This document shows, piece after piece, positions 12,776 to 53,747 of a DNA stretch of 64,000 bases. The notes under the pieces are model-generated. The model did no database searches. It was given only the letters and a program-made list of their open reading frames with translations, and was not told the DNA's origin. Origin of the DNA: Narcine bancroftii (lineage: Eukaryota); assembly GCF_036971445.1 (NCBI RefSeq), contig NC_091476.1:97960001-98024000 (forward strand), written 5' to 3'. Position 1 is the stretch's first letter; each line of letters opens with the position of its first letter. The position numbers and the translations under genes are program-made.

Positions 12776-12818
12776 ATGCGACTCCTGCTGCTGTCCCTGC
12801 TACACACAGGAATCCAAG
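12776..12818 (+). CDS. Exon 1: signal peptide [14 protein letters not shown](G)
   Basis: ATG in AAAGATG context, hydrophobic core, phase-1 donor CAAG|GTCAGT. Confidence 0.8.
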
Positions 12819-52500: not shown

Positions 52501-53747
52501 TGAAAGTCTGCAGCACTGTGATTGAAGTAAAAACACAATGCTGGAGAAAGAAGATCAAACAGTGTACTTTATATTAGCAAAGATAAAGATACAACCAACA
52601 TTTCGGGGTTCAGCCCTTCATCAGGGTATGAGCAAAATGTTGGCAGATGTCCGAACAAATGGAAAGGGAAAGGGGGCAGGGGGGAGGAGCACAGTCCAAC
52701 ACGCAGGAGATAATAGGTGGAAAAGTGAGGGAGGGAACACCAGCAAGCGGGGGGGTGTGTGGTATGGCTCCTTGAATAGAGAGGGGAGAGTTGGAGAGCT
52801 GAAGGAGAGAAGACGGAGGGATAAAGAAGAGAGGGCGAATGGGGAGTGGGTTACCAGATACCAGAGAAATCAGTGATAATGGCATCTGGTTGGAAATTGC
52901 CCAAATAGAATATTAGGTGTTGGTCCTCCATTTTCCAGGTAGTATTAGGTGTTGCTCTAGACATTAAATAGTTTGCCTTTATTCACCAAATAATCCTTAA
53001 GGAAATCCTAGCATGCCCTAAACCCTTTGTTACTCCCATATCTTCATTATCCATTCACTTGTGCAAACATTTTCAGGGAACTAGAGACTTGCACTCTGAG
53101 CTCCCTCTGCACATCAGCAGTTCTGCAATTTATTTTCATTGTTCTGTTAATATTTGATATAACAAAATGTAACATTTCACACTTGTCTGGATTAAATTGC
53201 ATTGGCCATTGCTCTGCCCATCTTAATAAGTGAACTGTATCACTTTTTTTTTCCAACTTTCATTGTTTACTACTCCACCAATCTTTGTGTCATCAGCAAA
53301 TTTAGTATCAGTCCACCTACATCTCATGCGTCAAACAATTTACTTAAGATGGAAAGATATTTGCTTATGTCTCAACCATACTGTGTGTTTTGCAGGATAG
53401 TTGAACTGATTTGATTTAAGTCACCGATTACCAGTGGATGATTTAATTTGTGAGCTGAAATTGAAAATAATCTTATTCACCTGGTTTTTCATGTTTCTCT
53501 ATGCACAGTTGCCTAATTTGTTTTTCCAGTAATTTTATTTTTATTGAAAAAAATTGTTTTAAGTATATGTAAATAATTATTGTTTTCTGATCTTTCTTCT
53601 CAGGACATTTCTGATATAACAGAGAAATCTGATAAAAGACAGTTAAAAGGTGCTTGTGGCCCTTCTCCTTATCACGTTGTTGAAGATACCTCTGTATATT
53701 CTGCAGTGTGGGTTTCTCGCCAGGATGTGAGAATTGCGGAACCCTGA
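12776..53747 (+). CDS. Type I Ig-superfamily inhibitory receptor, 483 aa (SP-V-C1/C2-I-TM-ITSM/ITIM). Exons: 12776-12818, 13457-13801, 22861-23163, 25986-26303, 26736-26828, 36573-36600, 46741-46778, 52166-52225, 52301-52380, 53604-53747
   Basis: All introns GT-AG with matching phases (1,1,1,1,1,2,1,1,0). Summed CDS is 1452 nt = 484 codons with no internal stop, ending in TGA at 53745-53747, with AATAAA at about 53779. Further small cytoplasmic exons cannot be excluded. Confidence 0.8.
13457..13801 (+). CDS. Exon 2: V-set Ig domain with J-like GxGT motif
   Basis: [39 protein letters not shown]. Polypyrimidine-CAG acceptor; G|GTAAAG donor. Confidence 0.9.
14162..15779 (-). mobile_element. Internally deleted L1/Tx1-like LINE flanked by a roughly 75-bp direct repeat
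   Basis: Endonuclease start ([18 protein letters not shown]) and ORF2 C-terminus (WLRDV..); T-rich tail at 14162; direct repeat 14085-14161 / 15780-15859. Confidence 0.7.
16035..16161 (+). mobile_element. RTE LINE 3' end fragment
   Basis: Nearly identical to 41870-42011 (..ATAAATCTTCGTCCGCGAAGCCAAGCCAAAG). A further 35-bp tail is at about 43021-43055. Confidence 0.8.
16895..17226. mobile_element. hAT-like MITE (family B), one end truncated
   Basis: Similar, in opposite orientation, to 48013-48384; CAGTGATTCTCAACC..TTGAAAACCACTG subunit. Confidence 0.7.
19483..19537. repeat. (AG)n microsatellite
   Basis: Uninterrupted AG dinucleotide run. Confidence 0.95.
19545..21113 (+). mobile_element. 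Rex1/Babar-like LINE, 5'-truncated and degenerate
   Basis: RT fragments [32 protein letters not shown] and [26 protein letters not shown]; 3' tail ..ACTCTGACAATAAATCT. Confidence 0.85.
22263..22706. mobile_element. Tc1/mariner (Tigger/pogo-like) MITE
   Basis: TA TSD; TIRs CAGGTACACGATCCTTTA / TAAAGGATCGTGTCCCTG; GC-rich repetitive core. Confidence 0.85.
22861..23163 (+). CDS. Exon 3: C1/CD80-like C2-set Ig domain
   Basis: [50 protein letters not shown]; phase 1/1. Confidence 0.9.
23515..25780 (-). mobile_element. Two adjacent L1/Tx1-like LINE 3' fragments
   Basis: [46 protein letters not shown]; poly-T tail at about 23515. Confidence 0.85.
25986..26303 (+). CDS. Exon 4: I/C2-set Ig domain
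   Basis: [37 protein letters not shown]; phase 1/1. Confidence 0.9.
26736..26828 (+). CDS. Exon 5: transmembrane segment [31 protein letters not shown]
   Basis: Uncharged hydrophobic helix followed by a basic stop-transfer segment; CACAG acceptor and AAG|GT donor. Confidence 0.85.
31855..33117 (+). CDS. gag: G2 gag with two zinc knuckles and an Ala-rich tandem-repeat tail
   Basis: [14 protein letters not shown].., [32 protein letters not shown]. Confidence 0.85.
   Translation: MERLTRPEKLDIDPQSATAFKAFKFWLLNFENFLRFIQVEEDNQRLTALLSMVSLRVYENIQDETTYTAAIKVQKELYDQPVNRVHARLMLASRKQQPGESSRAYLQVLKALGKDCNCVDKTAAEITSDLVRDAYVAGLRSNEVRLRLLEQGVEKLEDVARIAITMEDAALKSTELSRDWTPRSDVSRVPFYPTPDGLSAAATLPRANPKCYFCGRDKHSRSQCPARKARCQKCLKKGHFAAVCRSKMAASKHSASCEAQPPLSHSNSSSPELSSNESEGSPARQRLTSRRRRTRKGQPTVATMVMACLSPPCGTLDTTAAAAAAAAATATPGADAAAAAAAATDTPGSDAAAAAAAATATPGADATAAAAAAATDTPGADATAAAAAATDTSGADATAAAATHHGCGEPDRPVPHFLHY
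32806..33062 (+). repeat. GC-rich 45-bp minisatellite (about 5.5 copies) inside G2
   Basis: Unit GCCGCTGCTGCCGCCGCCAC(A/G)G(C/A)CACCCCCGGGGCCGACGCTGCC, encoding [15 protein letters not shown] in the gag frame. Confidence 0.9.
33060..35195 (+). pseudogene. pol: G2 pol remnant: N-terminally deleted RT, RNase H, integrase; frameshifts at about 33345-33372
   Basis: [61 protein letters not shown]. Confidence 0.9.
36573..36600 (+). CDS. Exon 6: 28-bp cytoplasmic micro-exon (DPVNVTTEM)
   Basis: TTTTTTTTCCAG acceptor, GAG|GTAAGA donor; phase 1 to 2, matching the next exon. Confidence 0.65.
36870..38370. mobile_element. Old CR1-like LINE fragment (+) with a nested L1-like fragment (-, about 36990-37860)
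   Basis: Degenerate CR1 RT-like text (GATGAGGGCAAGGCAATTGATGTT.., AGTGGAGTACCTCAGGG); L1 C-terminus [15 protein letters not shown]. Confidence 0.55.
38405..42434 (+). mobile_element. CsRN1-like Ty3/Gypsy element, degenerate; LTRs about 38505-38756 and 42166-42434; interrupted by an RTE LINE
   Basis: PBS TGGTGACCCTGA (tRNA-Trp-like) at 38758. Gag [65 protein letters not shown]-rich PPT. Protease and most of RT deleted near 39400. Confidence 0.85.
40951..42018 (+). mobile_element. RTE (BovB/RTE-1-like) LINE, 5'-truncated
   Basis: [44 protein letters not shown]-terminal CxxC; short-repeat 3' tail. Confidence 0.9.
43735..43930 (+). mobile_element. V-SINE/HE1-like SINE (similar copies near 18810-18990, 26990-27180, 56680-56910, 62940-63110)
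   Basis: tRNA-like head (GGGTTCAAATCCC) followed by a V-domain-like TGGGTTTTCTCTGGGGGCTCCGGTTTCCTCCCAC. Confidence 0.65.
45230..45610 (-). repeat. Possible solo LTR
   Basis: Starts TGTGGC and ends GCCAC(T); minus-strand TATAAAA and AATAAAA in LTR-like order; inserted in an L1 remnant. No partner LTR. Confidence 0.35.
46741..46778 (+). CDS. Exon 7: 38-bp cytoplasmic micro-exon ([13 protein letters not shown])
   Basis: Long polypyrimidine tract plus AAG acceptor, TAG|GTACGT donor; phase 2 to 1. Confidence 0.65.
48013..48384. mobile_element. hAT-like MITE (family B), full-length dimeric form
   Basis: Termini TAGTGGTTCTCAACC / GGTTGAGCACCACTG; 8-bp TSD ATTTAAAC/ATTTAAAT; two roughly 130-bp TIR-bounded subunits around a spacer. 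Confidence 0.8.
49103..49486. mobile_element. Second copy of the Tigger-like MITE
   Basis: Same ends as 22263-22706 (right TIR truncated), with a different GC-rich tandem core. Confidence 0.8.
50150..50910. repeat. GC-rich degenerate tandem repeat block
   Basis: Recurrent TGCCCAGCTCTCCC..GGGTCCCC..TGTGGGGAC units. Confidence 0.7.
52166..52225 (+). CDS. Exon 8: cytoplasmic, ITSM TVYAVV
   Basis: [29 protein letters not shown] donor. Confidence 0.8.
52301..52380 (+). CDS. Exon 9: cytoplasmic, ITIM VSYADI
   Basis: [39 protein letters not shown] acceptor, phase-0 donor AAG|GTATTA. Confidence 0.8.
53604..53747 (+). CDS. Exon 10 (terminal): ITIM-like SPYHVV and SVYSAV, stop codon
   Basis: [60 protein letters not shown] acceptor; AATAAA about 30 nt after the stop. 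Confidence 0.8.
   Translation, partial: DISDITEKSDKRQLKGACGPSPYHVVEDTSVYSAVWVSRQDVRIAEP

Follow-up and report, generated by a model that had tools for sequence, protein, structure and literature searches.

Does the gene at positions 12776 to 53747 of a 64,000-nucleotide stretch of the Narcine bancroftii genome (contig NC_091476.1, positions 97,960,001 to 98,024,000, forward strand; henceforth the window) encode a receptor of a known kind, and if not, to which family does it belong? A sequence-only reading of the window had predicted an inhibitory-type receptor of the immunoglobulin (Ig) superfamily (IgSF). We find that the gene is genuine and spliced, and that it is annotated in RefSeq under a wrong name, that of a sialic acid-binding Ig-like lectin (Siglec). 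Its product is a type I membrane protein with a signal peptide, an unsplit V domain of the VJ type, a C1 domain, an I-set domain, an uncharged transmembrane (TM) segment and a tail. The prediction is upheld for an inhibitory-type receptor with an unsplit VJ domain on a stalk of C1 and I-set domains; three of its tyrosine motifs are conserved. Judging from sequence, the protein is probably an inhibitory member of an ancient family of paired receptors of jawed vertebrates, and a predicted SHP-1/SHP-2 brake on leukocyte activation.

Gene model and transcripts

The gene comprises 10 exons on the + strand (Table 1). All nine introns are bounded by GT-AG, phase 1 introns separate the leader, Ig and TM exons, and the exons join into a single open frame of 483 amino acids, which upholds the phase-consistent model proposed earlier. 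The protein is identical to XP_069750633.1 ("sialic acid-binding Ig-like lectin 13", Narcine bancroftii; 100% with exon 2 as the query), which is a predicted RefSeq model and not the product of a dedicated study.

The earlier reading had proposed that the exon junctions be checked against RNA. We mapped contigs from four sequencing runs, not recorded as RNA but presumed to be so, on positions 36400-54400 and took joints that skip an intron as the evidence. Junctions 6-7, 7-8, 8-9 and 9-10 were each present in all four runs; junctions 1-2 to 5-6 lie outside the mapped stretch and are supported by the identity with the RefSeq model and by conservation in orthologs. Relatives in the skate cluster are represented by Logan proteins of 515 and 441 amino acids on contigs of 2326 and 1866 bases, from which we infer long spliced transcripts in a relative. 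In three of the four runs, a 132-base contig (52196-52327) carries the 75-base intron 8 unspliced, possibly as a retained intron or pre-mRNA.

Conserved tyrosine motifs and short-tailed relatives

Tail motifs were classified by published definitions of two immunoreceptor tyrosine-based motifs, the inhibitory (ITIM) and the switch (ITSM) type (PMC12151841). All five motifs listed in the earlier reading are present where it placed them. Four sites (TVYAVV, VSYADI, SPYHVV and SVYSAV) fit the pattern [ILVST]xYxx[ILV], a count equalled by 2 of 20,000 shuffles of the tail, and SMYSSA falls outside the pattern. We counted conservation in an alignment of 14 elasmobranch rows, 13 of which bear tails. 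Y393 and Y419 are retained in 13/13 tails and Y468 in 12/13, where the one exception is an alternative C-terminus and SEYSAV is present in its sister isoform (P0022); Y459 and Y382 are each found in 1/13. Because only the first three tyrosines are conserved, we count three functional motifs (TVYAVV, VSYADI and SVYSAV/SEYSAV) instead of the four to five originally claimed, and reject SMYSSA and SPYHVV. Conservation of the tail as a whole matches that of the ectodomain (0.50 and 0.48-0.52 mean identity, respectively). Beyond elasmobranchs, three tyrosines are retained in coelacanth P0181 (SVYAVP/VPYADI/SEYAEV) and paddlefish P0183 (AEYAVI/VPYADI/SEYAVI), and the last two motifs in Aldrovandia P0086. 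A partial homolog more distant than every elasmobranch row (P0160), perhaps a holocephalan ortholog, has all three tail motifs and also SPYH, without a hydrophobic residue at +3.

Long forms are accompanied by short-tailed relatives. Within a species, the ectodomains of long and short forms are 96% identical in Rhinoraja, 94% in Amblyraja, 90% in Pristiophorus and 92% in Latimeria. Among 17 rows that are short or partial, 10 have an arginine inside the TM segment or at its beginning, among them the twins of Pristiophorus and Latimeria and the gar and arowana proteins; the other seven, which include the skate short forms, lack it, and some of these are likely partial models. The hallmark of paired receptors, a long form with ITIMs and a short form with a charged TM segment on near-identical ectodomains, is found in Pristiophorus and Latimeria. 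These relatives likely point to a paired-receptor family with predicted activating twins. Pairing with FcR-gamma or CD3-zeta through a TM arginine is known for NKp30, NKp46 and LILRA.

We propose the following mode of action, likely a brake of the SIRP-alpha/PD-1 type by analogy. The V domain would bind a cell-surface protein rather than sialic acid, probably via the face with the YPP loop, and Src-family kinases would phosphorylate Y393, Y419 and Y468. The tandem SH2 domains of SHP-2, SHP-2L or SHP-1 would then dock on two phosphotyrosines, as on SIRP-alpha and PD-1, and the docked SHP would damp nearby signaling by immunoreceptor tyrosine-based activation motifs. Short paralogs with a TM arginine would pair with an adaptor of the FcR-gamma/CD3-zeta type and activate, and short forms lacking it may act as decoys. 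[quoted passage not shown]

Several points weigh against the reading as an inhibitory member of a paired family. No activating partner was seen for Narcine, and the 64-kb window holds no second Ig gene and no paralog exon. Incomplete gene models may account for some of the short forms (P0017, P0072). The first tail motif is off consensus in coelacanth (SVYAVP) and absent in Aldrovandia P0086, and tyrosine motifs are able to serve endocytosis or adaptors instead. All four sequencing runs come from one study and consist of contigs only. Finally, the branch uniting elasmobranch and bony-fish forms with EVxYADI is supported at only 88/81 in our 43-row tree and is missing from a quicker tree.

Family range and phylogeny

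Close homologs were named in 18 elasmobranch species, with 45-56% identity where listed. They include white shark XP_041030368.1, catshark XP_038634333.1 and little skate XP_055516779.1; the accessions of the coelacanth and reedfish proteins discussed below are XP_064424813.1/814.1 and XP_051788105.1. A full HMMER scan returned 920 proteins at E 0.001, and the 150 of them that were listed are mostly generic multi-Ig proteins; of these 150, 30 were examined and 10 assigned to species. Proteins of coelacanth, paddlefish, bichir/reedfish and the basal teleost Aldrovandia have the same architecture and a tail of the form EVPYADI...SEYA, and are likely orthologs with matching tails. This range is at odds with the earlier idea of a lineage-specific receptor. 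More distant paralogs occur in gar, arowana, bowfin and bonefish, together with a second paddlefish gene. There is no tetrapod among the named matches, and about twenty family-like matches carry no species name; the suggestion that the gene lacks a mammalian counterpart agrees with the lack of a one-to-one mammalian match among those named.

In the 43-row tree of ectodomains, the elasmobranch long forms make up one clade (100/99) with Narcine among the batoids. Their sister is a group of short-tailed forms (100/99), of which Pristiophorus is the one named. Coelacanth and ray-finned forms with EVPYADI group at 97/91. One-to-one orthology between elasmobranchs and bony fish rests on the tail because the branch that joins them is weak or not recovered. 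A separate expansion of long-tailed members (the P0052-P0105 group, 100/100), in which bowfin and bonefish are named, includes some with a fourth, distal tyrosine motif. A word-index profile search added no family member besides P0043. Two members depart from the usual layout: P0035 lacks the I-set exon, and in P0043 (Chiloscyllium) the V domain is joined straight to the tail, which may reflect splice variants or mispredictions. In the ESM atlas, one structure row for Aldrovandia P0086 is a 93-member chordate cluster automatically named SIRP-alpha-like, with C1-set and I-set domains in all members; these are possibly teleost relatives.

Ectodomain and V domain

The structure model contains three Ig domains, a helix at residues 338-365 and a tail modeled at low confidence. 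Charged residues are absent from the TM core (residues 338-362), and the C1-set and I-set domains of exons 3 and 4 both score above their Pfam cut-offs; the uncharged TM segment and the C1/C2 plus I-set stalk were correctly called. The Pfam V-set match of exon 2 has an E value of 5e-5, below the cut-off when the exon is taken alone and above it within the whole protein, and the V domain folded alone reaches a predicted local distance difference test score (pLDDT) of 91. Across 26 aligned V domains, both canonical cysteines are invariant (26/26), an extra cysteine pair is present in 22/26 and 25/26, the strand-A glutamine in 25/26 and the G-strand glycine pair in 23/26 and 22/26. The YPP loop is found in only about 12/26.

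We regard the V domain as an unsplit VJ unit because the V portion and the GQGT G-strand occupy one exon. The description "germline-joined VJ" holds as far as the unsplit exon goes, but "joined" is a misnomer: there is no sign of a former joining event. No F/W was found ahead of GxG in the V domain, and the GxG itself is gone from three ray-finned orthologs. The label "CD28/NKp30-like" is unsupported because sequence and fold searches with the V domain place those of Ig light chains, the T-cell receptor (TCR) and SIRP-alpha level, with no clear winner; the light-chain matches are inflated by the share of antibodies in the PDB. CD28, CTLA4 and NKp30 are absent among the listed V matches, an absence that does not exclude them. 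Neighbors of the V domain in the ESM atlas are generic V-set domains.

Two families that share features of the V domain differ from the receptor in layout. Like members of the CD28 family (CD28H, CD28HL1-3, CD28X and PD-1), it has a proline-rich FG loop before GxG and a tail of the PD-1/CD28HL3 type with ITIM/ITSM; unlike them, it has three Ig domains where the CD28 family is defined by a single V domain (PMC11599192), the CD28X motif YxCx6PPP is unmatched and YPP is inconstant. NITR ectodomains are known as V or V-I, without C1, whereas a C1-set match was obtained in 21/21 rows of our family. Both have a J-like non-rearranging V domain and both have inhibitory and activating-type forms (for NITR, bioRxiv 2021.06.11.448072).

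Genomic position and relation to other receptor families

Map position was available through the reedfish member P0072, which is named SIRP-alpha-like and lies on a 197,358,113-base sequence. Reedfish chromosome 9 extends to 197.27 Mb, and its sole gene named SIRP-alpha-like is LOC127529192 at 175.2 Mb, with the neighbors scn3b, gramd1b, clmp, jam3a, esam, crtam, nrgn and hepacam; the CD3 genes map to 180 Mb and TCR-alpha to 103-104 Mb (PMC10751288). P0072 is probably this gene, the two being equated by name and sequence size and not by accession. Such neighbors mark human 11q23-25, and the reedfish member probably sits in an IgSF block of that kind, not beside major histocompatibility complex (MHC) or TCR genes. 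Nine megabases away, at 166.13-166.28 Mb, "MAG-like" and "CADM1-like" genes lie between siae and zpr1 (PMC10751288) and could be additional, automatically named members of the family.

We tentatively extend the preferred reading, in a form rather unlikely to hold as a whole, to an undescribed, checkpoint-like paired family of jawed-vertebrate age, which combines an unsplit VJ-C1 module with a place in the CTX/nectin (11q23-25-type) block, was lost from mammals and persists in sharks, the coelacanth and basal ray-finned fish. If true, such a family would bridge the V-C1-C2 receptors of the nectin/Siglec type and the Ig/TCR lineage, and its VJ-C1 module would resemble the inferred pre-RAG (recombination-activating gene) antigen receptor.

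Among the alternatives, descent as the fish counterpart of SIRP, a V-C1-C1 receptor that recruits SHP and has paired activating forms, with the third C1 swapped or lost, is unlikely. SIRP-alpha and SIRP-gamma match V and C1 of the family profile in one stretch (positions 21-222, E 4e-38 and 1e-34), the SIRP-alpha D1 ranks second to third in Foldseek for the V model, and the reedfish member was automatically named after SIRP-alpha. SIRP also shares with the family an unsplit J-like V domain followed by C1, an uncharged TM segment, several SHP-type tyrosines and short twins with a charged TM segment. However, domain 3 is an I-set domain (34.6 bits) with no C1 match, the SIRP D1 is level with antibody and TCR V domains, and the family has an extra conserved pair of V cysteines. 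The activating-type forms carry arginine, whereas SIRP-beta pairs with DAP12 through a TM lysine, and human SIRP genes are located at 20p13, unlike the probable reedfish locus with its 11q23-25-type neighbors.

Quite unlikely, too, is an adhesion molecule or co-receptor like nectins, CADM or CRTAM whose tyrosines serve trafficking or adaptors more than inhibition. The V-C1-I layout is that of nectins and Necls, and the whole ectodomain has nectin-1, nectin-3 and Necl-4 among its best fold matches. Around the probable reedfish locus are crtam, esam, jam3a, clmp and hepacam; CD3 and mpzl genes lie 5 Mb off. Against this, three conserved ITIM/ITSM-type sites alongside short twins that bear an arginine are a typical mark of paired immune receptors, and the lock-and-key motifs and PDZ tail of nectins are not evident by eye in two family alignments.

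We find it equally hard to see the gene as a direct relic of the VJ-C1 gene split by the RAG transposon, that is, as a membrane-bound sister of UrIg, PRARP or NKp30. In favor are the unsplit VJ exon with a C1 exon behind it, the strand-A glutamine and the G-strand glycines, and the alignment of V and C1 in one stretch with UrIg2 (E 8e-43) and with lambda light chains. An IgA1 heavy chain is likewise matched in one stretch over V plus C1. PRARP has a VJ(-C1) ectodomain with an ITIM/ITSM tail, and like UrIg/UrIg2 shares the single-exon VJ followed by C1. Non-rearranging VJ-C1 genes are actively sought; UrIg itself is secreted and MHC-linked, with VJ followed by three C1 domains (PMC12227049), whereas our receptor combines a single C1 with an I-set domain and an ITIM tail and probably lacks MHC linkage. 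The white-shark ortholog lies on a 48.75-Mb sequence and not on MHC chromosome 19 (>115 Mb), and in reedfish about 71 Mb of one chromosome separate the probable locus from TCR-alpha. The missing F/W, the loss of GxG in ray-finned orthologs and the inflated light-chain matches speak against a relic as well. The link to antigen-receptor ancestry suggested earlier is weakened because the reedfish member probably lies in the 11q23-25-like block.

That the protein is a true, sialic acid-binding Siglec, as the RefSeq names imply, is highly improbable. MAG Ig1-3 is the best fold match of the whole ectodomain, Siglec-8 aligns along all of it (profile positions 29-338), the ESM atlas feature neighbors of Aldrovandia P0086 are MAG/CD22/Siglec clusters, and the tail is laid out as in the Siglec-like control P0165, with an ITIM and a distal ITIM-like motif as in Siglecs. 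But the MAG match has a TM-score of 0.37 by query, level with nectins and SIRP. The Siglec signature is an essential V-set arginine in the F-strand motif YXFR (PMC13358205, PMC7226832); this arginine is found in 0/26 of our V domains, and a cysteine stands at the phenylalanine position in 26/26. Eight Siglec-like controls, unnamed matches chosen by the motif YxFR/K, did not exceed 19 bits on the V profile or 38 on the domain-2 profile, compared with 62 and 57 for P0101, a family member left out of the alignment behind both profiles. Five V-C1-repeat proteins (B7-H6-like, a label by architecture) reached 61-82 bits on the domain-2 profile. In a tree that took in six of these eight Siglec-like controls and four of the five V-C1-repeat proteins, the 21 family rows fall on one side of a branch and these controls on the other (Shimodaira-Hasegawa-like approximate likelihood-ratio test, SH-aLRT, 95). 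The identity "Siglec-13" is rejected on these grounds. The family resembles Siglecs (MAG, CD22 and CD33-related) in its three-domain fold, its I-set/C2 third domain and a tail of the form ExVxYAxI...xEYxxI/V; unlike them, it keeps the canonical B-F cysteine pair, has a GxG G-strand and has a domain 2 whose match to C1 proteins is far stronger than that to Siglec domain 2. A distant common origin may lie behind the MAG fold match, the Siglec-8 alignment and the Siglec-like tail.

Novelty and significance

The family is apparently undescribed; the gene is already in RefSeq, and its signaling logic is of a known kind. We found no description in the open literature, a search that key subscription papers lie outside; six ortholog accessions led to no paper, and the supplements of four related papers contained no description. 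There is an appreciable, if lesser, chance that Fu et al. 2019 (PRARP) or Ohta et al. 2019 (VJC1 genes) already list it. Single-exon VJ-C1 genes are a handful of candidates for the origin of antibodies and TCRs, and few inhibitory receptors have been characterized in cartilaginous fish. To these comes a membrane-bound VJ-C1-I type that has activating-type twins and whose tail is conserved from rays to coelacanth. Automatic annotation has concealed the family by naming it in at least five ways (Siglec-5/6/12/13/14, MAG-like, SIRP-alpha-like, CADM1-like and Ig kappa-like), and correcting the Siglec label affects counts of shark Siglecs.

Introns, transposons and the surrounding window

Table 1. 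Coordinates of gene features and intron elements within the window.
Feature	Positions	Strand	Content	Support
Exon 1, coding part	12776..12818	+	Signal peptide, P0001 residues 1-14, phase 1 donor	Splice-signal model
Exon 2	13457..13801	+	Unsplit VJ-type V domain: C40, W56, C106, extra C74/C86, YPP loop, GQGT G-strand	
Exon 3	22861..23163	+	C1-set domain	Pfam C1-set 28.5 bits, cut-off 21
Exon 4	25986..26303	+	I-set/C2-like domain	Pfam I-set 34.6 bits, cut-off 23.7
Exon 5	26736..26828	+	Uncharged TM helix, juxtamembrane Cys, basic stop-transfer	
Exon 6	36573..36600	+	Tail micro-exon, 28 nt	Junction to exon 7 in 4/4 runs
Exon 7	46741..46778	+	Tail micro-exon, 38 nt; SMYSSA (Y382, not conserved)	
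Exon 8	52166..52225	+	ITSM-type TVYAVV (Y393, conserved)	
Exon 9	52301..52380	+	ITIM VSYADI (Y419, best conserved)	
Exon 10, coding part	53604..53747	+	SPYHVV (Y459, not conserved), SVYSAV (Y468, conserved as SEYSAV/SEYAVI), stop	
Young Ty3/Gypsy long terminal repeat (LTR) retrotransposon	31581..35513	+	Intron 5	244-bp LTRs 99.6% identical, 5-bp target duplication
Older Gypsy element	38403..42434	+	Intron 6; fragment like a long interspersed nuclear element (LINE) reverse transcriptase inside	LTRs 80% identical
Alternative exon end	42435..42543	+	GT donor after 42543, just past old 3' LTR	One run only

The introns had been described as transposon-filled, which is partly right: recognizable repeats and transposons make up at least about 31% of the 39,520 intron bases. 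The young Gypsy element sits inside an older LINE fragment and has matches to a gag zinc knuckle, RNase H and integrase; no reverse transcriptase match was found in the two of its open reading frames (ORFs) that were scanned. No Rfam match was found in the window.

Just past the older Gypsy element, a GT-AG joint leads from 42543 to 46741 (exon 7) in one run alone. Its contig depth is 3279, vs 124 for exon 6-7, a poor measure of transcript level. Because an in-frame stop lies ahead of the joint, this transcript would be non-coding or would encode a tail-only product from M381. M381 is almost invariant, and an out-of-frame upstream ORF overlaps its ATG in the transcript, which is possibly driven by the LTR. 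Additional degenerate Gypsy elements lie on both sides of the gene, at 9400-12200 and 57600-61700.

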